From NCBI GenBank assembly GCA_017452785.1, contig JAFTLT010000045.1, forward strand, positions 757-64,756: a stretch of DNA of 64,000 bases. Reading direction: 5' to 3'. The position numbers and the translations under genes were made by a program. This document shows positions 4,955 to 51,072 of this stretch, in pieces. The notes beneath the pieces are model-generated. The model was not told the DNA's origin. It worked only from the letters and a program-made list of their open reading frames with translations, and did not search any database. Numbering within the stretch: position 1 is the first letter of the stretch; every line of letters begins with the position of its first letter. The stretch comes from Clostridia bacterium (GTDB taxonomy: Bacteria > Bacillota > Clostridia > Oscillospirales > Acutalibacteraceae).

Positions 4955-5689
4955 TTAATAATAAACTTCGTTGAGATAAAGACCCTGAGCCTTGGCAGTT
5001 ATGCCTGCACGAAGGCGGTCTTTGCTTTCGATTATATCGGGGATTGTGTTTTTTTCGATTTTGCCTGAATTAATATCAAGCAGTGTGCCAACCATTATGC
5101 GCACCATATTATAGAGAAAGCCGTCACCTTTGACTCTGAAGGTAACAAGTTCGCCTTCTCGTTCAACACTGCAATCAAAAATAGTTCTCACATTTGTTTT
5201 TGTTGTGCCGCCTGCTGCACAGAAGGCGGAAAAATCGTGAGTACCGATATAGTCCTTTGCCTGAATATTCAGCATTTCACTGTCTATGGGCACGGGATGA
5301 TGCAGAGCCTTGTCAATGAGAAAGGGATTTCTCCGTCTGCTGTTCCATATTTTATAGATATACTCCTTGCCCTTTGCATCAAAACGGGCATTGAAGCTTT
5401 CAGACGCAATCTCGCAGGAAAGCACGCATATCGTTTCAGGCAAAACAGCATTGAGCCCATAAGCTATTTTTTCGCAGTCACGCTCTTTTTCACTTTTGAA
5501 GTTACAGCAAAAGCCCATTGCGTGAACTCCTTTATCAGTTCTGCTGCTGCCGTAAATTGTACACTTTTCGCCGAAAATTCTTTCTATTGCCTCACTCAGA
5601 CACTGCTGAACACTCATGGCATTTTCCTGCATCTGCCAGCCGTGATAAGGTGTGCCGTCATAGCTCATAATAAGCTTATAGTTAAACAT
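4955..5689 (-). CDS. truA: tRNA pseudouridine(38-40) synthase
   Basis: Motifs YDGTPYHGWQ and SSRTDKGVHA (catalytic Asp). Sits directly downstream of the ecf genes, as is usual in Firmicutes. Confidence 0.9.
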   Translation of the reverse strand: MFNYKLIMSYDGTPYHGWQMQENAMSVQQCLSEAIERIFGEKCTIYGSSRTDKGVHAMGFCCNFKSEKERDCEKIAYGLNAVLPETICVLSCEIASESFNARFDAKGKEYIYKIWNSRRRNPFLIDKALHHPVPIDSEMLNIQAKDYIGTHDFSAFCAAGGTTKTNVRTIFDCSVEREGELVTFRVKGDGFLYNMVRIMVGTLLDINSGKIEKNTIPDIIESKDRLRAGITAKAQGLYLNEVYY

Positions 5690-5691
5690 AA

Positions 5692-6513
5692 TTAAATAAT
5701 CGCTCCGAAATAATGGTTGAGAAGCACTACACCTGTGATGCCGAGAGCAAATATTACAAATGCAGCTCCGTCTTTAAAGCTGTATTTCATCTGCTTCATT
5801 CTTGTTCTGCCCTCTCCGCCAGTGTAACAGCGGCAGCTCATAGCAAAAGCAAGCTCATAGGCACGCCTGAAAGCCGAAACAAAAAGAGGGATAAGAATAG
5901 GTATGAGTGCCTTTATTTTTTCAATAAAACTGCCACTTTCAAAATCTGCACCTCTTGCCTTTTGTGCATTGGTGATGCGCTCAATTTCTTCAATTAGTGT
6001 GGGAATAAAACGAAGAGCAAGAGTCATCATCATGGCAAGTGTATGCACGGGTATATGAAAAATCTTAAGAGGTGACAGCAGTCTTTCAATAGCATCTGTC
6101 AGCTGAGTGGGCACTGTAGTATAGGTAAGAATTGAGCTGCTGATTATAAGGCACACAATTCTTATTGACATGAACCCTGCCGTTATAAGACCCTTTGAAG
6201 TTATCTTTAAAGGTCCCATAGCAAGAAGCTCTGTGCCGCCACTGATATAAAAAATATTGATAACTGATGTAAAAAGCACAATGGGGATAATAGGCTTAAG
6301 AGATTTGAGGAACATCTTAAGGGGCACCTGTGACATCAGTACGCAAAAAAGAACAAACAAAAACATAAAGCCCAATGAAAGAAAGTTTTTGCAAATAAAA
6401 ATCATAACAATAAACAAAACAGTAAGTATGATTTTCATTCTTGCGTCAAGGCGATGCACAAGGGAATCGCCCTTATAATACTGACCTATGGTAATATCGC
6501 TTATCATTGACAT
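5692..6513 (-). CDS. ecfT: Energy-coupling factor transporter transmembrane component
   Basis: 273-aa polytopic protein with the ARGAD-type coupling-helix motif (AQKARGADFESG). Its start overlaps the ecfA2 stop. Confidence 0.85.
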   Translation of the reverse strand: MSMISDITIGQYYKGDSLVHRLDARMKIILTVLFIVMIFICKNFLSLGFMFLFVLFCVLMSQVPLKMFLKSLKPIIPIVLFTSVINIFYISGGTELLAMGPLKITSKGLITAGFMSIRIVCLIISSSILTYTTVPTQLTDAIERLLSPLKIFHIPVHTLAMMMTLALRFIPTLIEEIERITNAQKARGADFESGSFIEKIKALIPILIPLFVSAFRRAYELAFAMSCRCYTGGEGRTRMKQMKYSFKDGAAFVIFALGITGVVLLNHYFGAII

Positions 6514-36492: not shown

Positions 36493-36522
36493 TTAAAATC
36501 AAAAGGCTGCCTGACGACAGCC
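36493..36522 (-). terminator. Hairpin plus T-run between the 43-aa mini-gene and rimM (terminator or attenuator)
   Basis: Minus-strand GGCTGTC-gtca-GGCAGCC followed by TTTTGATTTT. It ends 10 nt before the rimM start. Confidence 0.55.
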
Positions 36523-36536
36523 GTTTGCTTGCTTGA

Positions 36537-36668
36537 TTATTCGTCTTCGGGAAGGGGTGCCATCCAGTCAGGATTAACTTCACCGCCCATAAGCTCGCAA
36601 AGGTATTCATAGAGCTTATTCCATAAATCCCAGAAAATTTCTTCAAATGTTGCAAATAATTTTTCCAT
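36537..36668 (-). CDS. Unannotated 43-aa aromatic, acidic helical peptide (a member of the small-peptide family)
   Basis: Sequence MEKLFATFEEIFWDLWNKLYEYLCELMGGEVNPDWMAPLPEDE. GGAGGA lies 8 nt before the ATG, a promoter is at 36699-36727, and a terminator follows the stop. Below the track's 60-aa cutoff. Confidence 0.6.
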   Translation of the reverse strand: MEKLFATFEEIFWDLWNKLYEYLCELMGGEVNPDWMAPLPEDE

Positions 36669-36698
36669 TATAATTTCCTCCTATATAAGATTAAATAC

Positions 36699-36727
36699 AT
36701 TATATACCATATCACATATAATTTCAA
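36699..36727 (-). promoter_or_regulatory. Sigma-A promoter of the 43-aa mini-gene (and possibly rimM-trmD)
   Basis: Minus strand: TTGAAA, 17-nt spacer, TATAAT. Confidence 0.6.
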
Positions 36728-38432: not shown

Positions 38433-40385
38433 TCAGCGAAAAAAATCCATTACAAAATCAATGAGCTTAACTGCAATGTTATAAATTGTTGCAGCTGTGT
38501 TTCTGATGCCAAGCTTTTTAAGCAGGCTGCTTGCCTTTTCGCCAATAACCTCGTCGAGCTCCTTAGGCATATCAGCGTTAACATATGGCTCGCTTTCGTT
38601 GTACTCTGCCGCTTTACCGTTCATAAGAGTGAAATCAAAAGTTCTGTCACTGACAGGAGTGATTGTCTTATTCATAAATGAAATATTTATTTCAAAATTC
38701 TTTTTGCTTATTTCAGGAATTTCGCCTTCAAATGAAACTTCCTTGCTTTCACCGGGTGCAAGTGTGAAGGGTTCAAAGATGAAATCAAGACCGAGACCTC
38801 TTGCATTGATTGACATAACAGTTATATCATTTATAGCTGAGCAGTTGGTCACAACAAGAGTCTTATCAGCTGATGAGAGATAACCCTCTGTGCTCTTATT
38901 AAAGGCAGCATGCACACCGTGTGAGGGGTTCGTTGTCTCGTGGAACTGAGGATAACCTGCCATTGTGTGAGCGTCAAAGCTCTTGCTGCTGAGAAGCAGT
39001 GTGAACATAAGATTTTTTGTGAAGGGATCACTGATGGTCATTCCGTGATAATAGTTTTCAATAAACCATGTGTGGTGAGGAATATATGCAGTTGAGGCAT
39101 CCACTGTCATGCAGGGTGACACCTGATAATAGCCTGTGTCAACCTTCTGAGTATAGCCGTCAGCAAAACGCTTGCCAAATGGTGCTACAACTGCACCCGT
39201 TGCACCTGCTGTGGGGATAATAGCATCACTTGTTACTTCACCGCCACTGACGCTCTTTGCGTTATAGCCTGCCATAATATAGATGTTTGTGCCGATATCC
39301 TGAGCCTTTTTGAAGCCCTTGCCGTAGTAGTTTTCACCGTCAGGTGACATAATCTCATAGTGCATATAGTCGCTTTTTGCTATAAGATCTGCACTTTCAA
39401 CCGGGTCAAGAAGCTCAGCCTTAAGCTCTTCATAATGCTCAAGGGGAATGAAATCCCAAAGACTCTGCCAATACTGCACCACGCCGATAATCTGAGGCAC
39501 AAGCTCACCCACAATTGCATCAACAAAGCCTAACTGTTCAGCTTCAAGAAGGATATGATAGTCCTCCTCCCACTTCATGCCGTGCTCTATATATGTGAGC
39601 AGACCGTATTCGTCAAGCTTGCCGTTATTGCTCATAAGGTCATAAGCAAGGCTTGCACCGCCAAGAGCAGGAACTGTAAGCACTGCGTTATTTACTTTGC
39701 CCTCGTGACCATAAAGTGTGAGATATGTGCCTGTTGTCTGTCCGCCGTGTGAAACAGCAAGAAGATTAACCTTATCAACCTTATCCTTTTCAGCCTTGCC
39801 TTCGTTATGATGAGCAATTACATCATCAATAAATGCTCTCATTCTTCCGGCAATTTCAACGGGACCCTTACGGAAATCGCAGGTGAAAAGATAAAGGTTT
39901 TCGGCACCGATTTCTTCAGAGAGAATTGTCATCATTTCTGTTTCTTCGTTATGCTCACCATTCGGATAATTCTTTTGAATGTTTGCCCAGTTTGTTTCTT
40001 CGGCAGTGTTCAGATAGGTTGACAGCTCTTTTATACTTGAACCATCGGGATTGCAGCGAAGATTATCAAACAGCCAGTTAAAAGCTATGCCTACAACCTC
40101 AACTGCCGGTGAAATATCACCTGTTGCCACAAACTTTGCAGCGGCAGCAATAAGCTCTTCTTTGTATTCCTCAAGAGCCATCATAATCTGATCGCCTGTG
40201 TTGCCCCATGCGTGAATTTCCTCACCTGTTTCTTCATCAAAAAGACGGAGTGATGACGAGCTGTAGCCTGAAATCATGATAACAGGATATTTGTTGCCCT
40301 CATCTGCATAAACACCTGCAAAAGCAGCTGTGCTAAGTGAGAAGCACATAATAATTACAAGTAAAAGTGAAATAAGCTTTTTCAA
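38433..40385 (-). CDS. Secreted alpha/beta-hydrolase (lipase-like) with a C-terminal beta-rich extension. Downstream copy (2 of 2) of the tandem pair.
   Basis: Signal peptide, nucleophile elbow LLAVSHGGQTTG, and 650 aa collinear with the upstream paralog. Confidence 0.65.
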   Translation of the reverse strand: MKKLISLLLVIIMCFSLSTAAFAGVYADEGNKYPVIMISGYSSSSLRLFDEETGEEIHAWGNTGDQIMMALEEYKEELIAAAAKFVATGDISPAVEVVGIAFNWLFDNLRCNPDGSSIKELSTYLNTAEETNWANIQKNYPNGEHNEETEMMTILSEEIGAENLYLFTCDFRKGPVEIAGRMRAFIDDVIAHHNEGKAEKDKVDKVNLLAVSHGGQTTGTYLTLYGHEGKVNNAVLTVPALGGASLAYDLMSNNGKLDEYGLLTYIEHGMKWEEDYHILLEAEQLGFVDAIVGELVPQIIGVVQYWQSLWDFIPLEHYEELKAELLDPVESADLIAKSDYMHYEIMSPDGENYYGKGFKKAQDIGTNIYIMAGYNAKSVSGGEVTSDAIIPTAGATGAVVAPFGKRFADGYTQKVDTGYYQVSPCMTVDASTAYIPHHTWFIENYYHGMTISDPFTKNLMFTLLLSSKSFDAHTMAGYPQFHETTNPSHGVHAAFNKSTEGYLSSADKTLVVTNCSAINDITVMSINARGLGLDFIFEPFTLAPGESKEVSFEGEIPEISKKNFEINISFMNKTITPVSDRTFDFTLMNGKAAEYNESEPYVNADMPKELDEVIGEKASSLLKKLGIRNTAATIYNIAVKLIDFVMDFFR

Positions 40386-40397
40386 TTTGTTCTCTCC

Positions 40398-42362
40398 TTA
40401 TCTGTAAACAATCTTTGTCATCAGGTGAAGCACCTGAGCAAAAACATTGAATATATTTGAAGCAATTGCCTTTACACCTGTTTTTTCAAGCAGCGTGTTA
40501 GCTTCCTTCGGCAAAACATTGTCTATGTTTTTAGGATAATCTGCACCCACAAGCGGTTCATTTTCGTTGTACTGTGCCGCTTTGCCGTTCATCACAGTGA
40601 AGTCGAAGGTTCTTTCGCACACGGGAGTAACCTTGTTATTGAGATAGCTCACGGCAAGCTCAATATTTTTAAGGCTAACCTCAGGAATATCACCTTTGAT
40701 TTCAACTGACTTGCTCTCACCCGGTTTCAGGATAAAAGGCAGGAAGAAGAAATCAAAATCTGCACCGTAAACGCTGACTGAGCTGACAGTGATAACCGAA
40801 TCACAAGAGATATTTGTTATCACAAGCTCTTTATCCTGTGAGGAAACGAAGCCCTCTTTGCTACTATCAAATGCAGCAAAAACAACATGAGCAGGGTTTG
40901 TTGTGGCGTGGAACTGAGGATATTCTTTGAAAGAATTGACCGTGTAGCCCTCACCGTCTGTCAGAAGAAGCTTGCAGGCAAGTGAGAATGTGAAATCATC
41001 CTTATAGGTCATTCCGTGGTGGAAGTTTTCAATATACCATGTGCGCTCAGGCAGATATCCTGTTGATGCGTCAACTGTCATTGAGGGTGACACCTGATAA
41101 AAGCCTGTGTCAACCTTCTGAGTATATCCGTCACTAAAACGCTTGCCGTAAGGTGCAGCAACTGCCCCTGTGGCGCCCTCTATAGGTATAATAGAGTCAG
41201 AGCTTACAGGCATACCTGAAACAATCTGCACATCATATCCTGCTAAAATATAGATGTTTGTGCCGACTTCTTCAGCCTTTTTAAAGCCCTTGGCATAATA
41301 ATGTTCGCCTTCAGGTGACATAATTTCATAGTGAACGAAATCGCTTTGTGCAATAAGACCTGCATTCTTCACCGGGTCAAGGTTTTTCTCTTTCATTGCC
41401 TCATAGTATTCAATCGGCACAAAATCCCAAAGACTGCCCCAACAACCTAATATAGGCATACATTCCGGCAATAAAGCTTCTACCAATTCATCAAGGAAGC
41501 CTAACTGATTAGCCTGAAAGAAAAGATCAAGATCTTCTTCAATAATAAAGCCATGCTGCAAAAACTGCAGAAGCTCCGCATCATTAAAGTCGGCGTCACC
41601 GTTAAAAGCATCATAAGCTATGCCTGCACCACCAAGGGCAGGAACAGTGAGAATAGCATTATTTACCTTACCCTCATGGCCGTAAAGTGTAAGATAAGTG
41701 CCTGTAACCTGACCACCGTGGGAAAGGGCATAGATGTTAACTTTGTCAATCTTGTCCTTTTGTGCTCTGCCCTCGTTATGATATTCAATTACATCATCGA
41801 TATATGCTCTGAGAGAATTTGCAATTTCAACAGCACCCATACGGAAGTCACATGTAAAAACATAGGTGTTTTCCTTGCCTATTCTTGCACCGATGTCATC
41901 CATTATCTCTTTTTCTGCCTGATAGTCGCCTTCGGGGTACTTCTCGGCAAGATTTGCATAGTTGGTCTCTTCGGGAGTATGTACGTAATTATATACAGGT
42001 ACCGAAGGTGTGCCGTCATCATTACACTTCATATCAGCAAAAATTCTTCTGAAGCCGGCACCAAGTGTTGCTGCAAGCTCTGTTGCGTCACCTGTTGCAA
42101 AGAACCTTGCAGCTTGGGCAAGTATCTTTTCCAGCATACCGTCCTGAGCGCCTGCGGAAATCTGTCCGACGGCATCGCCCCAGACCATAACCTTTTCGCC
42201 CGTTACCTCGTCAATTTTATAATATGACGATGAAGTATAACCCGGCACCATAATTACGGGATACTTTGTCAGCTCTGCGTTTTCCTTTTCAGCAGCAAAA
42301 GCTATGGGGAAAGCACTGAAAACCAACAATAAGCAAAGTAACAACACTGTTAGTTTTTTCAT
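40398..42362 (-). CDS. Secreted alpha/beta-hydrolase (lipase-like). Upstream copy (1 of 2) of the tandem pair.
   Basis: Signal peptide, IYALSHGGQVTG, and long blocks identical to 38433-40385 (LTLYGHEGKVNNA.LTVPALGGA, YTQKVDTG.YQVSP.MTVDAST). Only a 12-nt gap separates it from the next gene. Confidence 0.65.
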   Translation of the reverse strand: MKKLTVLLLCLLLVFSAFPIAFAAEKENAELTKYPVIMVPGYTSSSYYKIDEVTGEKVMVWGDAVGQISAGAQDGMLEKILAQAARFFATGDATELAATLGAGFRRIFADMKCNDDGTPSVPVYNYVHTPEETNYANLAEKYPEGDYQAEKEIMDDIGARIGKENTYVFTCDFRMGAVEIANSLRAYIDDVIEYHNEGRAQKDKIDKVNIYALSHGGQVTGTYLTLYGHEGKVNNAILTVPALGGAGIAYDAFNGDADFNDAELLQFLQHGFIIEEDLDLFFQANQLGFLDELVEALLPECMPILGCWGSLWDFVPIEYYEAMKEKNLDPVKNAGLIAQSDFVHYEIMSPEGEHYYAKGFKKAEEVGTNIYILAGYDVQIVSGMPVSSDSIIPIEGATGAVAAPYGKRFSDGYTQKVDTGFYQVSPSMTVDASTGYLPERTWYIENFHHGMTYKDDFTFSLACKLLLTDGEGYTVNSFKEYPQFHATTNPAHVVFAAFDSSKEGFVSSQDKELVITNISCDSVITVSSVSVYGADFDFFFLPFILKPGESKSVEIKGDIPEVSLKNIELAVSYLNNKVTPVCERTFDFTVMNGKAAQYNENEPLVGADYPKNIDNVLPKEANTLLEKTGVKAIASNIFNVFAQVLHLMTKIVYR

Positions 42363-42901: not shown

Positions 42902-44371
42902 ATGAAGAAACGTCATATCATTGGCGGTGCTATTGCAGCAGCAGCTGCTGCAAATGCAGTTCATGCAGCTCTTTACACCCCCAAAAAGACAGAAAGTGAA
43001 CCCCTCCCGCAGGAAGATGTTAACGTTCAGCGTTACCGTGAAAACCTTTCAAAGGCTATTCAGTGCAAAACTGTTTCCTATAGAGAGAGTGAAAGAGTTG
43101 ACTGGGCAGAGTTTGAGAAGTTCCACAAATTCCTTGACGAGGCTTATCCTCTCATTGCCAAGACTCTTGAAAAGGAAATCGTTCCCCCCGCAAACCTTAT
43201 CTATCGTTGGAAGGGCACAAGAAGCGACCTTGAGCCCATAGCTATGCTTGCTCATCAGGACGTTGTTCCTATTTCAGCAGGCACAGAAGAGGATTGGACA
43301 CACGATCCCTTCAGCGGTCATGATGACGGTGAATTTATCTGGGGTCGTGGCAGCGTGGATATGAAAAACCACCTCATCGCTGTTATGGAATCAGTTGAAG
43401 CACTTCTCGAAGACGGCTATGTGCCTGAAAGAGATGTTTATCTTCTTTTCGGTGATAACGAAGAGGTTGTTGCTAACTCCGACAACGGTGCAAAGGATAT
43501 TATGCTCACTCTCAAAGAGAGAGGCATCACTCTTGAAAGCATTGTTGACGAAGGCGGTGCAATGATTCCCATTCATGTTCCCGGTGTGCTTGAACATAAG
43601 TTCCTTGCAGGTGTGGGCGTTGCTGAAAAGGGTTATTCAGATATCGAAATCGTTGTGAATGCTAAGGGCGGTCACTCATCACAGCCTCCCGTACACACAG
43701 CTTTAGGCAAAATTGCAGGAGTTATCAAAGACCTTGAGGATAATCAGTTCAAGGCATATCTCAACGAAAATATGAAGAGTCTTTTTGATGCTATCGGCAG
43801 AGAGTGCTCATATCCCGTGCGTCTTATCACATGCAATATGCCTCTGCTTCATCCTGCTATCATTGAGCTGTCAAAGCACATTCCTTTCCTTGCTTGCCTG
43901 ACACGCACAACAACAGCTGTAACAATGGCACAGGGCAGCCCTGCAGCAAATGTTCTTCCCCAGCGTGCAGCTATCACAGTTAACTTCCGTGCAATGCCCG
44001 GCACAACCAAGCAGGATCTTATCGACCATATCCGCAAAGTCTGCAAGAATAAGGATATTGAAATCAATGTGCTCAATTCAAAAGAGGCATCTTCATTCTC
44101 CCCCACCGATTCAAGAGCTTACGGCATCATCCGTGATGTTACCAAGTCGCTTCAGAGTGGCGCTATTGTTGCTCCCTATCTTGTTATGGGCGGCACCGAT
44201 GCATATAACTATGAGCCTATCTGCAAGAATATCTACCGTTACGCTCCCTTTGAGCTGACAACAGAGCTTCTTCGCTGCACACACGGCACAAACGAGAGAC
44301 TTCCCATCAACCTTATGGAAAACGCACTCCTCTTCTTCAAAAACTACATCAGAAGAGCAAGCGCAGAGTAA
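42902..44371 (+). CDS. M20/M25/M40-family metallopeptidase (carboxypeptidase-like)
   Basis: LAHQDVVP, GRGSVDMK and DEGG metal-ligand motifs; 489 aa. Confidence 0.8.
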   Translation: MKKRHIIGGAIAAAAAANAVHAALYTPKKTESEPLPQEDVNVQRYRENLSKAIQCKTVSYRESERVDWAEFEKFHKFLDEAYPLIAKTLEKEIVPPANLIYRWKGTRSDLEPIAMLAHQDVVPISAGTEEDWTHDPFSGHDDGEFIWGRGSVDMKNHLIAVMESVEALLEDGYVPERDVYLLFGDNEEVVANSDNGAKDIMLTLKERGITLESIVDEGGAMIPIHVPGVLEHKFLAGVGVAEKGYSDIEIVVNAKGGHSSQPPVHTALGKIAGVIKDLEDNQFKAYLNENMKSLFDAIGRECSYPVRLITCNMPLLHPAIIELSKHIPFLACLTRTTTAVTMAQGSPAANVLPQRAAITVNFRAMPGTTKQDLIDHIRKVCKNKDIEINVLNSKEASSFSPTDSRAYGIIRDVTKSLQSGAIVAPYLVMGGTDAYNYEPICKNIYRYAPFELTTELLRCTHGTNERLPINLMENALLFFKNYIRRASAE

Positions 44372-44448
44372 TTTCGTAATCGCGGGATAGTTTTGATAAA
44401 GCAAAAACTTTTTTCCCGCCGCTTGCAGCAAAGCAAAATTTAAACTAA

Positions 44449-44494
44449 GAATATCCATCTGTTCCTTTTGGGTTCAGGTGGATATTTTGTTTGT
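44449..44494 (+). terminator. Intrinsic terminator after the M20 peptidase gene
   Basis: GAATATCCATCTG...CAGGTGGATATT stem followed by TTTGTTTGTT. Confidence 0.7.
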
Positions 44495-44499
44495 TAACG

Positions 44500-44530
44500 A
44501 AAAAAGCAGCCATCTGCAGGTGCAGACGGC
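44500..44530 (-). terminator. Intrinsic terminator after the 26-aa mini-gene
   Basis: Minus-strand GCCGTCTGCA..TGCAGATGGC followed by TGCTTTTTT. Confidence 0.65.
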
Positions 44531-44573
44531 CGAAATTATTATCCTTTATTATAAATATCCGAGCATAAATCAG

Positions 44574-44654
44574 ATTAAGCAAAGAGAGCCTTAATCCACT
44601 CGATGAGCTGCATAAGATGGTCGAGACCAAACATTGTAACTATTTTTTCCCACA
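44574..44654 (-). CDS. Unannotated 26-aa leaderless amphipathic peptide
   Basis: Sequence MWEKIVTMFGLDHLMQLIEWIKALFA. GGAGGA lies 7 nt before the ATG, with a promoter at 44709-44737 and a terminator at 44500-44530. Confidence 0.55.
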
Positions 44655-44708
44655 TATTAATTTCCTCCTTTACTGCTTATTTAAGGGATGTTTTTCCTTA
44701 CAACTGAC

Positions 44709-44737
44709 ATTGTATATTAAACTTCACTATTTGTCAA
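44709..44737 (-). promoter_or_regulatory. Sigma-A promoter of the 26-aa mini-gene
   Basis: Minus strand: TTGACA, 17-nt spacer, TACAAT. Confidence 0.55.
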
Positions 44738-44850
44738 TAAAATATAAACATTTTTAATTATTTGTGCAAAATAACCTCACATTTATTACACCTTCGGTGT
44801 CTTAAACACAACATATTGCGTTATTTTGTTTTATTGATCACTGTATATAG

Positions 44851-44880
44851 AAAAAACAAAACCCGCCACTAGGGCAGGCT
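44851..44880 (-). terminator. Intrinsic terminator after the 36-aa mini-gene
   Basis: Minus-strand CCTGCC-ctagt-GGCGGG followed by TTTTGTTTTTT. Confidence 0.65.
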
Positions 44881-44913
44881 TTGTCTATTAAACAATTGTT
44901 TAATCGCGATAAA

Positions 44914-45024
44914 TTATTCAGCGTCTTTAAGGTTGCCGTTTTCATCCTTTTCGATGCCAAAGATTGCAAGAAGCTTGTAGATGAATTCCCAAAGCATTGC
45001 GTACATATCTTCAAATACCTGCAT
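44914..45024 (-). CDS. Unannotated 36-aa leaderless aromatic amphipathic peptide
   Basis: Sequence MQVFEDMYAMLWEFIYKLLAIFGIEKDENGNLKDAE. GGAGGA lies 8 nt before the ATG at 45024. An in-frame ATG at 45039 lies inside the SD region, so it is less likely. Confidence 0.6.
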   Translation of the reverse strand: MQVFEDMYAMLWEFIYKLLAIFGIEKDENGNLKDAE

Positions 45025-45077
45025 TATAGTTTCCTCCATATCAAGATTTGAAAGAGTATTACCTCTAACTTGATTAT

Positions 45078-45106
45078 ATTATATATCAGCCATAGATAAA
45101 TGTCAA
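45078..45106 (-). promoter_or_regulatory. Sigma-A promoter of the 36-aa mini-gene
   Basis: Minus strand: TTGACA, 17-nt spacer, TATAAT, with an AT-rich UP-like region shared with the next cassette. Confidence 0.65.
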
Positions 45107-45144
45107 TAGTTTATTCAAAAAATTTTAATATTTCACTTTAACAT

Positions 45145-45170
45145 GAAGAAAAAGCCACCCGAAGGCGGCC
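45145..45170 (-). terminator. Intrinsic terminator after the 30-aa mini-gene
   Basis: Minus-strand GGCCGCC-ttcg-GGTGGCT followed by TTTTCTTC. Confidence 0.65.
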
Positions 45171-45205
45171 TTTTCTTTTTAAACAATTGTTTAAACTAGT
45201 TAAAA

Positions 45206-45298
45206 TTATTCTGCATCCTTAAAGTATGCGAATGCCTTGTAAAGATATTCCCAGATTGCCTGCCATACTTCTTCAAACTTTGCGAAAAATTCAGCCAT
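45206..45298 (-). CDS. Unannotated 30-aa leaderless aromatic amphipathic peptide
   Basis: Sequence MAEFFAKFEEVWQAIWEYLYKAFAYFKDAE. GGAGGA lies 8 nt before the ATG, with a promoter at 45352-45380 and a terminator at 45145-45170. Confidence 0.6.
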   Translation of the reverse strand: MAEFFAKFEEVWQAIWEYLYKAFAYFKDAE

Positions 45299-45351
45299 TA
45301 TAGTATCCTCCATATTTAGATTTACTAAGAGACACCTCTTAATATGCTTAT

Positions 45352-45380
45352 ATTATATATCAGCATAATATAAAAGTCAA
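45352..45380 (-). promoter_or_regulatory. Sigma-A promoter of the 30-aa mini-gene
   Basis: Minus strand: TTGACT, 17-nt spacer, TATAAT. Confidence 0.65.
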
Positions 45381-45485
45381 TAGTTTATTCAAAAATATTT
45401 AATATTTATTACCTGTTTTCCTCTTGTACAAAGCACTACCCTTTTCGTCAGCCGTTCTGCACTCAGCACTCTGCGTTCTACACTT

Positions 45486-45510
45486 AAAAAGGCTACCCTT
45501 GCGGATAGCC
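45486..45510 (-). terminator. Intrinsic terminator after the Cys-rich protein gene
   Basis: Minus-strand GGCTATCC-gcaa-GGGTAGCC followed by TTTTT. Confidence 0.7.
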
Positions 45511-45524
45511 TTTTAGCTTTTCAA

Positions 45525-46010
45525 TTACTGGATTGAACCGAGAACCTCGTCAAGTCTGAGGAATTCGAAGATGCTGTTGAAGAAATTATCAAATACATCT
45601 GAAATTCTCTTAAGAATCTTCTGGAAGCCACTGATGAAATCATCCTGTGCGTCTTCTACTGCATCCTCATCAACAGGTCCGAAAATGGAACCGCTGCCAG
45701 TGTTTTCATTGTTGGGGTCACAGCAATCGCAACCACAGCCGCAGGGGAAAATGCCTGTGCAATATGCGCAGCAGAGTGAACCGTCATATGTACCGTCTGC
45801 ATTGCCGTCTTTAGCACATGATGTGAGATAAGACTTATCAATGTTGGGGCAAAGAACACAGCAGTGACATGAACCTAAAGGTGCAGCTTTGTGATCGTCA
45901 CATGTGCATTTGTCAGTAACAACAGGCTCCTCAACTACAACTGCAAAAGCCATTGTGCCCATTGCAAAAACCATAGCAACCGCTAAAAGAATTGAAATTA
46001 CTTTTTTCAT
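45525..46010 (-). CDS. Secreted Cys-rich protein (15 Cys in 63 aa) with an acidic linker and a C-terminal aromatic amphipathic helix
   Basis: Signal peptide MKKVISILLAVAMVFAMGTMAFA. The core is CTCDDHKAAPLGSCHCCVLCP...LCCAYCTGIFPCGCGCDCC and the tail is FISGFQKILKRISDVFDNFFNSIFEFLRLDEVLGSIQ. It has its own TTGACT-17-TATAAT promoter. Confidence 0.7.
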   Translation of the reverse strand: MKKVISILLAVAMVFAMGTMAFAVVVEEPVVTDKCTCDDHKAAPLGSCHCCVLCPNIDKSYLTSCAKDGNADGTYDGSLCCAYCTGIFPCGCGCDCCDPNNENTGSGSIFGPVDEDAVEDAQDDFISGFQKILKRISDVFDNFFNSIFEFLRLDEVLGSIQ

Positions 46011-46097
46011 TGGAATCTCCTCCTAAATTTTGGCGGAAAGTATAAGCCGCCTTTATAGATACATTATAGTAAATAAAACAGCAAAAGTCAAGACGCA

Positions 46098-46137
46098 ATA
46101 AAAAAAATCAGGAATTCCAAAAAAGAATTCCTGATTT
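46098..46137 (-). terminator. Intrinsic terminator after the 637-aa gene
   Basis: Minus-strand AATCAGGAATTC-tttttt-GGAATTCCTGATT followed by TTTTTTT. Confidence 0.8.
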
Positions 46138-46140
46138 ATA

Positions 46141-48054
46141 TTAAACTCTAACCGTATTACTGTATCCGCCATAGCCGGTTACACCGTCATCCTTACGGAG
46201 TGTTCTTATTCTGAAGCGATATGTACCGTCAGCTTTTAGACCCTCAACTGTGTATGAAAGAGTATCACTGTCAACAGTCTGAACCTTGATAAGCTCATCG
46301 CCTGAAACTCTGTAGATAACATAATGGGTTGCACCGCTTACTTTATCCCATGACAGCTTGACCTTGCTGCCTGTCTGCTTTGCTGTCAGTTCTGCCGCCT
46401 TAGGGCCTGCAACACCTGTTATATATGAAGGCTCACTGCTATAATATTCCGAGCCTACCTTTGCAGTGGCATGAACCTTGAATTTATAGCTTCTGCCTGC
46501 CGTGAGCTTGAAGGTATATGAGGTTTCATCTGTAACGGCAACCTTTTTATAGCTTTCGCTCTCACTGTCATATCTGTAAATAGAGTACTGTGTTGCTCCG
46601 CTGACCTTTTTCCACGCAAGACCCAATTTGCCGGAGGTGGAATAATTCTGCTTAAGAGCTGTAACCTTATCGGGTACAACAGTAATTGTCACACTGCTTT
46701 TAACTTCACCCTTATCGGCAGCCGTGCAGGTGATTTTAACTGTGCCGTACTTTTTAGCTGTCACCTTACCCTTTGAGTTGACCACTGCAACAGAGGTGTC
46801 GGAGCTTTTCCATGTGAGAGTGCCGTCGGTTACATCGGCAGGCTCAACAGCAGCCTTGATCACCGCACTGTCACCCTTGGCAATTTTTGCAGGAGCATCA
46901 AGCTCAACGGCTTTTGCGAAAACAATTTCCTCAGCCTCAAGAACCTCAAAGTGATAGTCTTCACTTGCTATTTTCCAACCTGAAACCAATGAATTTGCAG
47001 CATATACTCTTGCAGAATATCTGCCTGCTTCATCGATTGTAATTGTCTTTGCTCTTTTATTTTTGCTGACGGTATATTTCTGAACTATGTCGCCGTCTTC
47101 ATTATAAATATAAAGCCAATATTTGCCTGCGCCGCAGTATTCACGCCATGAAAGAGGAATTTCTTCGCCCACAGTGTATATCTCAGTTTTATTTTCAAAG
47201 TCAGGCTCTTCAATTTTTCCGCCTAAATATTCAGCGTAGTTGAGAGCACACCAGCCAACAGTGTTTCCAAAAAGGATTTTGCCCCAAAGGTATTCACCGT
47301 CATCATATTTGTCATAAACCTTAAACTTGGTTCCGTCATATATTTTATCAACAACATTTGAATCTGTTGTGTGCTCTGCTCTGACATTGAGAGTTGCACC
47401 AACCATTTTCCAATCCTCGTGAGGATCGTTTTTTGCTATGTCGGTTTCTTCCGTGTCTTCAGGCTTAATTGAATCAGTGTTTTTATAGAAATAAAGGTCT
47501 GTGTTTTTTCTGTTGTTGCCCTCAAGTCTGTAAACATAGCTGAAGCCCTGAATATCTGATATATCCATAACGCCCCAACGAATCTGACATCTGCCGACCC
47601 AGTTGCAGTCCGTGAAAGAAATCTTATTGCCGCTGACACCTGTAACACAAAGTGAGTGACCGTTCCAGCGGTAGCGGATAATATCACCGACACGCAGTGA
47701 AGAAGCCTTAAGGCTTGTCACCTTTACGAAATTATTTCTGGGCATTATGCCGGTGATTTCATAAGCTATTTTATGGGCGTACCCCATACACTGAATTGCA
47801 TTGTCGAAATTATTGCAGTCACACGATTTATTCCATGCACAGCTGCCATGACTTGCGCAGGGTGTGGATGTTACACCGTCAGGGTTGTTTTTGCCTTTAT
47901 CAACGTTATTCCAATATTTGCCGTTCGGGAATTTTTCAACTAATGAAGCTAATATAGTGAGAGTGTCGTCAGCAGCATTACCGACAAAGCTGACACTCAT
48001 CGCAGGCATAATAACCAAAAGGGCAAGAAGCAGGCATAAAAGTTTTTTAAACAT
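46141..48054 (-). CDS. Secreted multidomain protein: N-terminal papain-fold Cys/His hydrolase-like domain (CHAP/NlpC-P60-like), SH3b, Big_2 and two Fn3 domains
   Basis: Signal peptide. Candidate nucleophile context AIQCMGYAHKIA with a downstream NGHSLCV. An SH3b-like block (LNVRAEHTTDSNVVDKIYDGTKFKV...GWCALNY), a Big_2 block (LTWKSSDTSVAVVNSKGKVTAKKYG), and two W.KVSGAT.Y.IYR Fn3 modules. Confidence 0.6.
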   Translation of the reverse strand: MFKKLLCLLLALLVIMPAMSVSFVGNAADDTLTILASLVEKFPNGKYWNNVDKGKNNPDGVTSTPCASHGSCAWNKSCDCNNFDNAIQCMGYAHKIAYEITGIMPRNNFVKVTSLKASSLRVGDIIRYRWNGHSLCVTGVSGNKISFTDCNWVGRCQIRWGVMDISDIQGFSYVYRLEGNNRKNTDLYFYKNTDSIKPEDTEETDIAKNDPHEDWKMVGATLNVRAEHTTDSNVVDKIYDGTKFKVYDKYDDGEYLWGKILFGNTVGWCALNYAEYLGGKIEEPDFENKTEIYTVGEEIPLSWREYCGAGKYWLYIYNEDGDIVQKYTVSKNKRAKTITIDEAGRYSARVYAANSLVSGWKIASEDYHFEVLEAEEIVFAKAVELDAPAKIAKGDSAVIKAAVEPADVTDGTLTWKSSDTSVAVVNSKGKVTAKKYGTVKITCTAADKGEVKSSVTITVVPDKVTALKQNYSTSGKLGLAWKKVSGATQYSIYRYDSESESYKKVAVTDETSYTFKLTAGRSYKFKVHATAKVGSEYYSSEPSYITGVAGPKAAELTAKQTGSKVKLSWDKVSGATHYVIYRVSGDELIKVQTVDSDTLSYTVEGLKADGTYRFRIRTLRKDDGVTGYGGYSNTVRV

Positions 48055-48203: not shown

Positions 48204-48725
48204 TTAAACAGTGAGTCTGACAAAAAAAGCAGACAGCACAAGGCTGAGGAAATCAGCTGTGAGCCCTGCCATTAGAGTGTGACGAGTATTTTTTATGCCG
48301 ATTGCAGAATAATAAACCGTAACCGCATAAAGTGTTGTGTCTGTTGAGCCCATAACAACACTTGCAACCTGACCTATAAAGGAATCCGGCCCATGAGTTT
48401 TCAGCACACTTTCAAAAAGCGTAAGTGAACCGCCGCCTGAAATGGGACTTAGCAGTGCCATAGGTGTTATTTCATCGGGTACACCAAAAAGAGATGTAAC
48501 AGGAGCAAATAATGCCGACACAATTTCCATTGCTCCGCTTTCTTTAAGCATTGTCACTGCAACCACAAGTCCCGTTATGCTCGGAAGCAGCTCATAAACA
48601 GTGTGAAGTCCCTTTCTAGCCCCCGACATAAAGCAGTCAAAAACTTTAACCTTCTTCACAAGACCGAAAAGAACGATGCCCACCACCATAACGGGCAATA
48701 TGTAGCTGCCGAAATTATCAGGCAT
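48204..48725 (-). CDS. spmB: Spore maturation protein B (nucleoside-recognition-domain membrane protein)
   Basis: Polytopic ~173 aa protein paired with and overlapping spmA. ATG at 48725 follows AAAGGAG. Confidence 0.75.
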   Translation of the reverse strand: MPDNFGSYILPVMVVGIVLFGLVKKVKVFDCFMSGARKGLHTVYELLPSITGLVVAVTMLKESGAMEIVSALFAPVTSLFGVPDEITPMALLSPISGGGSLTLFESVLKTHGPDSFIGQVASVVMGSTDTTLYAVTVYYSAIGIKNTRHTLMAGLTADFLSLVLSAFFVRLTV

Positions 48726-48726
48726 A

Positions 48727-49332
48727 TTATGCACTCCTTTGTTTGCAGTCTTGACTGCTTTTTACCCTGTTGCCGATTTTTGCCACGGCAATTGCTGCTG
48801 CAAGCGCACAAAATGAGGTTAGAAAAGCTGCAGGCATTATTTCCATTGGCTTTGCACTGCCGTATTGACCTCTCATTGTGGCAACGGTTGTGGGGATAAT
48901 ATGCATTGCCGCCGTATTCATAACAACAAAAACAACCATCTCATTGCTTGCCACTGTTTTGTTTTCATTTATATCCTGAAGCCGTCTCATAGCCTCAAGA
49001 CCCAGTGGTGTTGCCGCATTACCGAGGCCGAGAATATTTGCCGTTATGTTCATGGAAATTGCTTCAAGGGCATATTTTTCTTTTCTCAGGCGTGGAAAAA
49101 TCATACCAACAATCGGTGACATAAGCCTTGAAAATACCTTTGTCATGCCCGACTGCTCAGCTATTTCCATAACACCCCCCCAAAGGCAAAGCATAGAGAC
49201 AAGTCTTAAAAGCAGCTGCACTGCACTTTCAGCTCCGTCAATTACAGCAGAAGACAGTGCATCAATTCTGCCCGTGGCAACTGCTGAGATAAAAGACAAT
49301 AGCAACAAAACCGGAAAAACATAGTTCATCAT
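48727..49332 (-). CDS. spmA: Spore maturation protein A
   Basis: Polytopic protein with the Gate-domain motif ANILGLGNAATPLGLEAM, immediately upstream of spmB. Confidence 0.75.
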   Translation of the reverse strand: MMNYVFPVLLLLSFISAVATGRIDALSSAVIDGAESAVQLLLRLVSMLCLWGGVMEIAEQSGMTKVFSRLMSPIVGMIFPRLRKEKYALEAISMNITANILGLGNAATPLGLEAMRRLQDINENKTVASNEMVVFVVMNTAAMHIIPTTVATMRGQYGSAKPMEIMPAAFLTSFCALAAAIAVAKIGNRVKSSQDCKQRSA

Positions 49333-49389
49333 AAAAATCACCTGAAATAATATATGTTATTTCCCCTTTATAAATGACAAGACCGCCCT

Positions 49390-51072
49390 TTAATCAAGGC
49401 GGTCAATGCTTACATATTCAATTTTCCATTGCCCTTTCACGGGGTCTTTTTCTTTGCTGTAATCACAGTAAACAGCAGTGTTTTCGCTATAGAGTATACC
49501 TACGCTTCTCAATTCACCCTTTTTAAGAGGTACTGCTTGACTGAGATGCTGTTTTAACCTTCTGAGTCTTTCATCTTTAATCTTAAGGCAAGAGGGCAGA
49601 ATATCAGAATTATTTGTAGAAAGTCTGTCGAGCAGCATAAGGTCACGAAGTCTGATTTTGTCAACTCCCCTGATAAGAGAGAAGTACTCATAAGCAAGGC
49701 AGGTGTATTTATCCAGAGCAATGCTCCCCTTTTCGTCTTTGCTTATAAGAAATTCACCAAAACCGAGAAACAGCTCATAAGGCGGCATAAATCTTGTCAC
49801 ATAGCTGAGGGTACGTGGAAACCTTGCGCTGTTATATAAGCGTTCAAGCTCATTTTCACATATATGCAAAAGAGAAAGCTCATCTTTAGTTATATAAGGT
49901 GTTGATACAACCTCATAGGGCGGCTCACTGCTATAGGTACAGGGGAACTCCTCTTTGTTTTCGGCCATAGGTGAACCGTGAAGCACCTTAAGAAAGCCCA
50001 GCTGAAGCATATGGGCTCCTATTTTATAGGCTCTGTCAAAACCTGCAACAAAGCTGTCATAGCCCTCTTCGGGAAGGCCTGCAATAAGGTCGATATGCAC
50101 ATGGCAATTGCCGTATGAAAGAAGTCTCTTGACATTTTTTTCGACTAAATCTGTGTTGGTCTTTCGGTTTATTTTTTTGAGAGTGTTTTCATTAAAGGAC
50201 TGAATTCCCACCTCAAACTGCACTGCCCCATTCGGCAGAGTAGCAATAACCTCAAAGAGCTCCTCAGTGAGAATATCAGCAGCAATTTCAAAATGGAAAC
50301 AGACTCCCGACGGGATTTTTCTGCCGTATTCTTCTTTTATAAAAGATAGTATTTCACCGGCACGCTTGCTGTTGCAGTTAAAGGTTCTGTCAACAAACTT
50401 GATTGTTTTTGCGCCCTTTGAAGCCAGAATAAGCATTTCATTTTTAACTCTGTCAAGAGGCAGAAATCTCACCTTACCACACCTGCCCGAAAGACAAAAG
50501 GCGCAGCTGAAAGGGCAACCTCTGCTGCTTTCAATATAGGCAATTCTTGTGCCGAGGCTCTCAAAATATTCCTCACAGTAAGGCGACACTGTTTTTTCAA
50601 AATCGGCAGGCTCACCGTCTGAGATAACCAAAGTGTCACCCTCACGAAAGGAAACACCACTGATTAAAGGCTTATTATCATTTAAAAGTGCCTTAAGCAG
50701 TAACGGCATTGTCATTTCACCCTCACCGCTGAGCACATAGTCGACAAAGGAATTTTCTTTAAGTATTTTTTTCTGACAGTAAGATACCTCAGGACCTCCA
50801 AGAGCAATTACAACTCCCTTACTTTTGAGCATGTTGCAAAGCTCAAGGGTCTTTTTAATATTCCATATATAGCAGGAAAAGGAAACAAAATCAGGTTTTT
50901 CCCTTATAATTCTGTCATAAACTGCCTTTATATCTTCATTCACCGTACCCTCAAGCACCTTGATTTCACAAGGCAGCTTTTCATTTTTGCAGGCTGTGAA
51001 AAGGCAGCAAGGCGCAAGGGATGCGTGTATGTATTTTGAATTGAGAGTGCAGAAAAGAGCTTTGCTTATCAT
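49390..51072 (-). CDS. B12-binding-domain radical SAM protein (DUF4080 C-terminal type)
   Basis: An N-terminal Rossmann-like cobalamin-binding region and the rSAM triad SSRGCPFSCAFCLS; 560 aa. Confidence 0.8.
   Translation of the reverse strand: MISKALFCTLNSKYIHASLAPCCLFTACKNEKLPCEIKVLEGTVNEDIKAVYDRIIREKPDFVSFSCYIWNIKKTLELCNMLKSKGVVIALGGPEVSYCQKKILKENSFVDYVLSGEGEMTMPLLLKALLNDNKPLISGVSFREGDTLVISDGEPADFEKTVSPYCEEYFESLGTRIAYIESSRGCPFSCAFCLSGRCGKVRFLPLDRVKNEMLILASKGAKTIKFVDRTFNCNSKRAGEILSFIKEEYGRKIPSGVCFHFEIAADILTEELFEVIATLPNGAVQFEVGIQSFNENTLKKINRKTNTDLVEKNVKRLLSYGNCHVHIDLIAGLPEEGYDSFVAGFDRAYKIGAHMLQLGFLKVLHGSPMAENKEEFPCTYSSEPPYEVVSTPYITKDELSLLHICENELERLYNSARFPRTLSYVTRFMPPYELFLGFGEFLISKDEKGSIALDKYTCLAYEYFSLIRGVDKIRLRDLMLLDRLSTNNSDILPSCLKIKDERLRRLKQHLSQAVPLKKGELRSVGILYSENTAVYCDYSKEKDPVKGQWKIEYVSIDRLD

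Follow-up and report, generated by a model that had tools for sequence, protein, structure and literature searches.

Do three closely spaced open reading frames (ORFs) for peptides of 30, 36 and 26 amino acids (aa) encode real products, to what do they belong, and what might they do? The question is raised by positions 44574 to 45298 of a 64,000-nucleotide (nt) stretch of the chromosome of Clostridia bacterium (family Acutalibacteraceae; GenBank assembly GCA_017452785.1, contig JAFTLT010000045.1, positions 757 to 64,756), which is called the window throughout. The three ORFs, P30, P36 and P26, follow one another on the minus strand, and a dispersed paralogue, P43, lies elsewhere in the window. 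P30, P36 and P26 are firmly shown to be genuine coding genes, and the products, just as firmly, to be single acidic, aromatic-rich amphipathic alpha-helices. An initial annotation of this DNA treated the peptides as stand-alone genes. Instead, they are part of a conserved module whose first gene encodes a secreted, cysteine-rich protein of about 160 aa. The role proposed for the module is more tentative and draws on an analogy with the phenol-soluble modulins (PSMs) of Staphylococcus.

All three minus-strand ORFs are present with the translations first reported. P30 occupies 45206-45298 (MAEFFAKFEEVWQAIWEYLYKAFAYFKDAE) and P36 occupies 44914-45024 (MQVFEDMYAMLWEFIYKLLAIFGIEKDENGNLKDAE), as originally placed. 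The P26 ORF (MWEKIVTMFGLDHLMQLIEWIKALFA) is equally real; its position had been given as 44574-44654, one base off the actual 44575-44655. Translation is attested by comparison between species. In about 20 orthologous loci, every copy begins with an ATG behind a Shine-Dalgarno (SD) sequence and ends at a single stop. Substitutions are biased towards synonymous sites: in pairwise comparisons with the window copy as reference, the ratio of nonsynonymous to synonymous difference (pN/pS) is 0.2-0.7 at a pS of 0.3-1.0, which is near saturation. P30 is under purifying selection, and the exact P30 protein recurs on five contigs. In-frame ATGs further 5' (MEDTIM..., MEETIM...) overlap the SD sequence, and the entries in the protein collection do not start there. 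That the peptides are missing from the GenBank annotation, as had been claimed, is deduced from protein accession numbers, which run consecutively from RimM to the 161-aa protein discussed below and fit only seven larger ORFs. Exact P30, P36 and P43 are present, nameless, in a collection of 15 billion proteins; P26 is too short for gene calling and hence has no entry there. Micropeptides below 50 aa are systematically missed, and the four considered here went unannotated despite near-optimal signals.

The nature of the products is equally well defined. AlphaFold2, given 25 homologues, models P30 as one continuous helix spanning residues 2-29, with a mean predicted local distance difference test score (pLDDT) of 92.6. 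A profile search of 5.8 billion proteins yields three peptide subfamilies of 29-43 aa, with the consensus sequences MAEFFAKFE.VWQAIWEYLYK (P30-type), DMYAMLWEFIY..LAIFGIEKDENGNL (P36-type) and FW.LWNKLYEYLCE...NPDWYAPLPEEE (P43-type). The motif originally noticed in P30, P36 and P43 is borne out by their hidden Markov models (HMMs), which match one another at E values of 1e-6 to 1e-2. Searched against all six-frame ORFs of the window, these HMMs score only the family members already named, and no others beyond the four peptides were found. P26 had been thought to share general character only. It is instead a conserved third member of the array, of an 'FGLDHL' subtype, with orthologues of its own. 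Single linkage by phmmer (E < 1e-3) unites the P30-, P36-, P26- and P34-types, 132 peptides from 51 loci in all, a grouping to be read with caution since the peptides are short and compositionally biased.

None of the peptides carries a signal peptide. The net charge is below zero in each of the 132 family members (mean -4, range -1 to -9), and 18% of their residues are aromatic. The mean maximal hydrophobic moment (muH) is 0.51, against 0.33 +/- 0.09 in shuffled sequences; in the window it is 0.46-0.51 for P36, P30 and P43, and 0.35 for P26. Stretches free of charged residues are short, the longest in each peptide having a median length of 7 residues and never exceeding 17. Charges are spread along the whole helix, and no transmembrane stretch was found in any of the 132 peptides. 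The short uncharged runs, negative charge and high muH together identify amphipathic, not transmembrane, helices. The description of the products as leaderless, anionic and amphipathic therefore stands.

The partner gene (45525-46010, minus strand) lies immediately upstream of the array and encodes a 161-aa protein with a signal peptide, about 16 cysteines, an acidic linker and a C-terminal helix. The initial annotation was right that no exporter, immunity or modification gene adjoins the peptides; this gene it overlooked. A gene of about 156-161 aa, without a Pfam domain, is found directly upstream and on the same strand in all contigs with a P30-type peptide. Alignment of the family reveals a Sec-type signal peptide, about 16 invariant cysteines, a nearly invariant histidine, the acidic linker and a very conserved C-terminal helix at residues ~116-158 (GFQxILKRISDVFDxIFDAIFEFLRLDEVLG). 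A word-indexed search gives 38 clusters for the family; among 1.84 billion proteins clustered at 50% identity it accounts for 58. It occurs in 63 species-level genomes, all of them metagenome-assembled, mostly from ruminant and other animal guts, and labelled Acutalibacteraceae, Oscillospiraceae or 'Clostridia bacterium'. Peptide genes stand directly downstream in 42 of 62 full-length loci, and 4 of the 62 are truncated. The number of peptides per locus is 1-7 by family count, and up to 10 in a less strict ORF scan; exactly three, the mode, are present in 25 of the 42 peptide-bearing loci. Array peptides are 26-54 aa long (22-54 aa in the less strict scan). They recur in the order P30-type, P36-type, then P26-type or P34-type, between flanking genes that differ. 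The window shows the same arrangement, with small ORFs, each with SD sequence and ATG, directly downstream of the cysteine-rich gene on the same strand. When neighbours are clustered across the 63 loci, the only groups to emerge are the ~160-aa protein, a secreted protein of ~120 aa and housekeeping genes in synteny; no dedicated exporter, immunity or modification gene is linked to the module. The peptides and the 161-aa gene form a module that is vertically inherited and specific to Acutalibacteraceae, an abundant, uncultured family of the gut in which dozens of species retain it.

Several further features accompany the module in subsets of loci. In 22 of 63 loci the gene just upstream of the cysteine-rich one encodes the ~120-aa protein, which has a signal peptide and a C-terminal amphipathic helix. 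Examples in L009 (5494-5850) and L062 (3422-3802) have an acidic linker and a lysine-rich helix, followed in the L009 copy by a VIFGVVDKND motif. A gene for an XRE-type helix-turn-helix protein lies upstream of the cysteine-rich gene in 19 loci, including L009, L062 and the identical L031. Several loci without downstream peptides, noted as examples and not as a systematic count, carry the ~120-aa and XRE-type genes. One clade (L024 3611-3772 and nine other loci) encodes a basic 53-aa protein (MADKAKRERIMKKARSVIRVRSDDGRIKSD...) about 250 nt upstream of the cysteine-rich gene. In L051 (4512-7365) and in L031 and L037 (4469-6390), the array behind the cysteine-rich gene is expanded to 6-10 peptides, which are 34-53 aa long and have more alanine-rich, less aromatic helices.

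How the peptides relate to the protein that heads the module is indicated by its C-terminal helix. An HMM built on the C-terminal 48 residues of the ~160-aa proteins (the tag) retrieves ten free peptides at E values of 2e-7 to 1e-3, whereas five shuffled peptide sets gave a best match of 4.5e-3. All ten are of the P34-type (consensus MLENxETYxxGIVDWFKRLFTIIxEFLGDIGV), which is absent from this window. Judged by these profile scores, the tag is significantly similar, and demonstrably homologous, to the P34-type free peptides. The tag helix is also C-terminal in a pectate-lyase-like protein (P0127). The cysteine-rich domain, for its part, occurs as tandem copies in P0088 and P0092 and is N-terminal in leucine-rich repeat (LRR) proteins of the BspA type (P0117 and P0123). 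Since tag and domain are found on differing proteins, both are taken to be portable modules of exported proteins. The C-terminal end of P0117 and P0123 reads CSCNCHK-(helix FxWKIINFFQKxF)-CxCGxxH, a second helix bracketed by Cys/His motifs. The C-terminal helices of the BspA-LRR proteins and of two secreted proteins of the 650-aa class were considered as members of the peptide family; none was significant.

Because a homologous helix ends Sec-exported proteins with unrelated passenger domains, the helix module is likely to act outside the cytoplasm. The peptides also have the architecture of PSMs, as first suggested: a leaderless single amphipathic helix of about 20-45 aa. In Staphylococcus aureus, lipases are trapped on the cell surface by LspU, a PSM-like peptide whose gene adjoins that of a lipase (PMC12607899). 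The reading favoured here, to which we give a probability short of even, is that the peptides act at the envelope in the manner of PSMs and co-assemble there with secreted proteins that carry the helix tag. The following steps are envisaged. (i) The 161-aa protein would be exported by Sec, carrying its cysteine-rich domain and terminal helix. (ii) The peptides would reach the envelope via a transporter encoded elsewhere, as PSMs do. (iii) There they may self-assemble, or co-assemble helix-to-helix with the C-terminal tags of secreted proteins. (iv) The assembly might build a surface-active or retaining layer, with a docking role comparable to that of LspU. A surfactant role is proposed by analogy, there being no homology to PSM families and a charge opposite to that of the alpha-PSMs.

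Several observations weigh against this proposal. The anionic charge disfavours binding to anionic bacterial membranes, unlike that of the alpha-PSMs. No exporter was identified adjacent to the module or in the window, where the only ATP-binding cassette (ABC) genes among the scanned ORFs are of the energy-coupling factor (ECF) type. The ~160-aa gene stands without adjacent peptides in 16 of the 62 loci, which means that a partnership, if there is one, need not be encoded in cis. AlphaFold2 gives the 161-aa protein a pLDDT of 50, with only the terminal helices predicted with any confidence. Direct homology of P30, P36 and P26 to the C-terminal helix was considered and set aside: against the tag HMM these types score E values of 0.02-0.3 (0.02-0.1 for P30-type peptides), within the range of the shuffled controls. 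An hhalign comparison of the P30/P36/P43 profile with the 161-aa protein, which matches its residues 130-152 (P = 0.0011), speaks for a relationship, but weakly, at a probability of 20%. Finally, P43 sits at a separate, housekeeping locus. Its whole cassette spans 36505-36727 on the minus strand, with its own promoter (36699-36727, 11/12 consensus match), coding sequence (CDS; 36537-36668) and terminator (36505-36522). P43-type genes are always immediately upstream of rimM-trmD, with the terminator between P43 and rimM; the gene further upstream differs, being ybaK-like or CotH.

An alternative is an intracellular function, in which the small proteins would stay in the cytoplasm and bind a protein target or the inner face of the membrane. 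They might possibly serve as regulators or as chaperones for the tail of the 161-aa pre-protein, with P43 as a ribosome-maturation factor. Acidic small helices are commonly protein binders. The lack of a signal peptide and of a nearby exporter, the constant place of P43 just upstream of rimM-trmD and the 16 loci in which the ~160-aa gene has no peptides all agree with such a role. It is difficult to square with a homologous helix at the C-terminus of Sec-exported proteins with unrelated passengers. Copy numbers of 1-10 and the allele swapping described below would be unusual for a dedicated regulator, and all the genes bear signals for extreme expression. An intracellular function is held to be rather unlikely. 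The more specific suggestion of a sporulation regulator, made in the initial annotation, finds no support, given sigma-A promoters and homologous or analogous helices on Sec-exported proteins. Two adjacent Gate-domain genes (Pfam Gate; 48204-49341, minus strand), which resemble spmA/spmB, suggest that the organism forms spores; the promoters of the module are nonetheless of the sigma-A type.

Evidence that the peptide alleles are exchanged between strains comes from the near-identical pair L007/L008. The P30-type CDS (L007 6657-6749, L008 1555-1647) differs at 17 of 93 nt, an identity of 82%. In the gene for the 161-aa homologue 1 of 483 nt differs, and identity is 96.5-100% in the flanking DNA between genes. 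The P30-type CDS has a pS of 0.41, against 0.01 in the neighbouring gene, which points to replacement by an old allele and not to local mutation. In-situ hypermutation, of the kind produced by diversity-generating retroelements (DGRs), was rejected because synonymous divergence is equally high. A second strain pair has a milder excess, and a third has none. These comparisons suggest cassette allele exchange between the conserved promoter and a palindrome described below. In L008, a scaffold gap (~1700-1930) falls inside a duplicated P36-type cassette; most likely it reflects two alleles in the sampled population.

Swapped P30 alleles in near-identical strains, together with variable copy number, are also what might be expected if the peptides were a multi-peptide leaderless bacteriocin, or another set of interference toxins, with alleles diversified by antagonism. 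In being leaderless, helical and encoded in tandem, the peptides are reminiscent of aureocin A70, enterocin L50 and garvicin KS. Known leaderless bacteriocins are, however, strongly cationic, whereas all 132 peptides here are anionic, and they have no family match in Pfam or NCBIfam. No conserved immunity or ABC-transporter gene lies nearby. The module is syntenic and vertically inherited in the core chromosome across 62 species; it is not accessory and is not found on viral contigs. A bacteriocin is thus considered improbable. A phage origin was likewise discarded, as no relative was found on IMG/VR contigs.

The signals that surround the genes are themselves unusually well conserved. A consensus scan of 44300-46200 finds four promoters that match 11-12 of 12 consensus positions, all on the minus strand, one before each peptide ORF and one before the 161-aa ORF. 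These are of the sigma-A type, in agreement with the -35 element, 17-nt spacer and -10 element originally assigned to each peptide gene. The P30 promoter (45352-45393) consists of an upstream block, TTTGAATAAACTATTGACT, and the -10 element TATATAAT; its core (45380-45352) is TTGACT-17-TATAAT, an 11/12 match. That of P36 (45078-45119) has the block TTTGAATAAACTATTGACA and the -10 element TATAAT, with a 12/12 core (TTGACA-17-TATAAT, 45106-45078). The P26 promoter (TTGACA-17-TACAAT, 11/12; 44709-44737) has an architecture unlike that of the P30 and P36 promoters. The 161-aa gene has the promoter TTGACT-17-TATAAT (11/12; 46063-46091) and, as read from the sequence, a terminator of hairpin and T-run at 45486-45514; it is therefore monocistronic. 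A GGAGGA SD sequence lies 7 nt 5' of the ATG of each of the three peptide genes. The hairpin and T-run claimed after each stop codon are likewise present. The intrinsic terminators of P36 (44854-44886) and P26 (44507-44532) emerge from both scan and folding. That of P30 (45146-45177), a 14-bp stem followed by a U-run with a folding z of -6, was missed by the consensus scan and seen on folding. Judged by these near-consensus signals, P30, P36, P26 and P43 are probably translated and very strongly expressed.

Leader hairpins, also part of the initial annotation, present a mixed picture. In the window copies they are weak (z -1.7, -0.07 and +0.3), but for the P30 and P36 types they have modest compensatory support in the form of AU-to-GC exchanges among 38 orthologous leaders. 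The P30 hairpin (45323-45344, minus strand), near the 5' end, has a folding energy of -9.8 kcal/mol and some compensatory pairs. A hairpin is present in the 5' untranslated region (UTR) of the 161-aa gene too, and its stem covaries between species in orthologous upstream regions. Stabilizing 5' stem-loops occur in highly expressed Firmicute mRNAs, for example in the aprE leader. The cassettes share with them a hairpin near the 5' end, a strong SD sequence and a consensus promoter; they differ in the weak folding of the window hairpins, and an effect on stability here is conjectural.

P30- and P36-type cassettes are paralogues as entire units. Their promoter region is almost invariant between species: the 19-nt block TTTGAATAAACTATTGACA is exact in 19 of 30 P30-type and 16 of 43 P36-type genes, and the window contains it at two sites only, against 0.06 expected by chance. 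The second conserved element is a perfect 16-nt palindrome, TTAAACAATTGTTTAA, found in the 3' UTR of P30 (45179-45194), where it adjoins the terminator, and in that of P36 (44888-44903). It lies 8-21 nt beyond the stop codon, and these two sites are the only ones in the window, where 0.08 would be expected by chance. The palindrome is present in 40 of the 75 loci retrieved. It follows 38 of 43 P36-type and 14 of 29 P30-type genes in perfect form, and none of the P26-, P34- or P43-type genes. It is unchanged between species whose ~160-aa proteins share only ~40% identity, and the terminator stems beside it vary freely between species, by covariation. Folded as RNA, it forms a 7-bp hairpin that directly abuts the terminator hairpin. 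The self-complementary 'loop' fits recognition of duplex DNA by a dimer. A place in the 3' UTR would be just as compatible with an RNA element, and the palindrome could be either this or an operator. The promoter block in the form TTTGAATAAACTATTGAC(A/T), at 45375-45393 and 45101-45119, is exact in 35 loci, far beyond the needs of an UP element. It contains TAAACtATTG, which resembles one half of the palindrome plus its centre, so that one factor might bind both. Palindrome and promoter block are concrete handles for finding a regulator.

Such elaborate non-coding elements invite two further explanations. In the first, the cassettes are untranslated and encode small RNAs, their ORFs being incidental. 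Strong promoters and terminators do bracket predicted transcripts of ~190-240 nt, and the non-coding elements are highly conserved. Against this, every orthologue has an intact frame behind a consensus SD sequence, and amino-acid motifs persist although synonymous sites have reached saturation. Amphipathic periodicity is also far stronger than in shuffled sequences, and one of the peptide subtypes has a homologous segment within a bona fide protein. The likelihood of this explanation is close to nil. In the second, the peptides are membrane peptides of the type I toxin kind, each controlled by an antisense RNA or, through the palindrome, by a 3'-UTR RNA. Monocistronic small ORFs with strong promoters, structured UTRs, bidirectional-looking terminators and a conserved 3'-UTR element would suit such a system. 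The hydrophobic transmembrane segment of Fst, TxpA and BsrG is, however, absent, as the median uncharged run of 7 residues attests. The peptides are acidic, not hydrophobic or basic, and plus-strand antisense promoters are unconvincing, with weak sites of at most 9/12. Type I toxins are thus very improbable here.

A broader model would unite the elements of the locus. Free anionic micropeptides, usually three at a locus, and the homologous tail of Sec-exported proteins would form a helix-tag system of heteromeric bundles or a polymeric envelope scaffold, with palindromic operator or RNA control and exchangeable alleles. This is regarded as rather unlikely. If true, it would be a new way for these Clostridia to retain enzymes and cysteine-rich proteins at the surface.

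The setting of the module is a core chromosomal region, which includes ECF transporter genes, truA, rimM-trmD, lepA and a hemN-like gene. A B12-radical-SAM gene (49390-51072) raised the possibility of a link to ribosomally synthesized and post-translationally modified peptides (RiPPs); it was dismissed, as the gene is syntenic in close relatives only. On the minus strand, 38433-40385 and 40398-42362 encode a pair of paralogues with signal peptides, 650 and 654 aa long. Neither Pfam nor the PDB offers a match to them. An 'SHGG' motif in them may be that of a hydrolase, and both have an amphipathic helix (muH ~0.6) at the C-terminus; no homology to the peptide family is detectable. A related ORF family adjoins the module in 11 of 63 genome loci, and ~650-aa genes without Pfam domains flank it in three metagenome loci (L006, L007 and L073). 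Between module and P43 (38173-38343 and 42510-42746, minus strand) lie genes for a cysteine-rich DUF1540-like protein of 53/56 aa and for a 78-aa protein with two transmembrane segments; the DUF1540 gene is syntenic in the same three metagenome loci. In one genome (L075), a bAvd / 23S_rRNA_IVP gene (5499-5855), which resembles a DGR accessory gene, directly follows trmD; it is probably unrelated to the peptides.

Searches of existing libraries bear out the initial impression of an unrecognized family. None of the peptides has a match in Pfam or NCBIfam, even at E <= 10, and scans with Pfam, NCBIfam, PADLOC and PHROGs returned nothing meaningful for the four peptides and the 161-aa protein. PDB sequence searches with P30, P36 and the 160-aa profile gave no match. 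An Rfam search of 44300-46200 at E <= 1 gave only sub-threshold, terminator-like chance matches, and literature searches on the peptide motifs and the palindrome found no paper. The peptides, the cysteine-rich protein and the palindrome have no description in the libraries and literature searched.

The closest functional parallels are with PSMs (PSM-alpha, PSM-beta and delta-toxin) and LspU, which are leaderless single amphipathic helices of 20-45 aa. PSM genes, like those described here, belong to the core genome, are often in tandem and are very highly expressed. Their exporter, Pmt/AbcA, is encoded elsewhere in the genome; here no transporter is adjacent, and any export would rely on one at a distance. 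PSMs also retain N-formyl-Met and have surfactant, cytolytic or amyloid-forming activity. PSM-beta is acidic and about 44 aa long, and LspU provides a parallel for a peptide gene beside that of a secreted protein, there a lipase. Differences are substantial. There is no sequence homology and no Pfam match, and all members here are anionic and unusually aromatic. PSM genes form operons, whereas each gene here is monocistronic with its own promoter and terminator. The hosts are Clostridia of the Acutalibacteraceae, not Staphylococcus, and a partner protein with a fused copy of the helix, similar to the P34-type, is found here only. If action at the envelope is confirmed, PSM-like peptides would extend beyond Staphylococcus, and in anionic form. 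The peptides are short enough for direct synthesis and testing.

Leaderless class IId bacteriocins (aureocin A70, enterocin L50A/B and garvicin KS) are also short helical peptides encoded side by side, with neither leader nor modification. They are strongly cationic, usually plasmid-borne or accessory, and accompanied by ABC-transporter and immunity genes. Those described here differ in their negative charge and in their syntenic place on the chromosome; they show no homology to these bacteriocins, and no transporter or immunity genes of this kind lie nearby. RiPP precursors were set aside, as no conserved modifying enzyme lies nearby. The same applies to SpoVM-type sporulation micropeptides, since the promoters are of the sigma-A and not the sigma-E/K type and the helix is anionic rather than cationic. 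C-terminal helix anchors, as in Escherichia coli PBP5/6, and the dockerin-cohesin system resemble the tag as portable C-terminal modules on different secreted passengers. The helix anchors described so far contact lipid directly and have a basic or hydrophobic character; docking by the tag here is hypothetical. Docking of helix-tagged secreted proteins would, if true, constitute a new principle of surface retention. To our knowledge, no known system co-encodes free-standing copies of such a tag as micropeptides. Among leaderless amphipathic micropeptides, those of the Acutalibacteraceae are set apart by a fused-tag partner, an anionic aromatic chemistry and invariant cis-elements.

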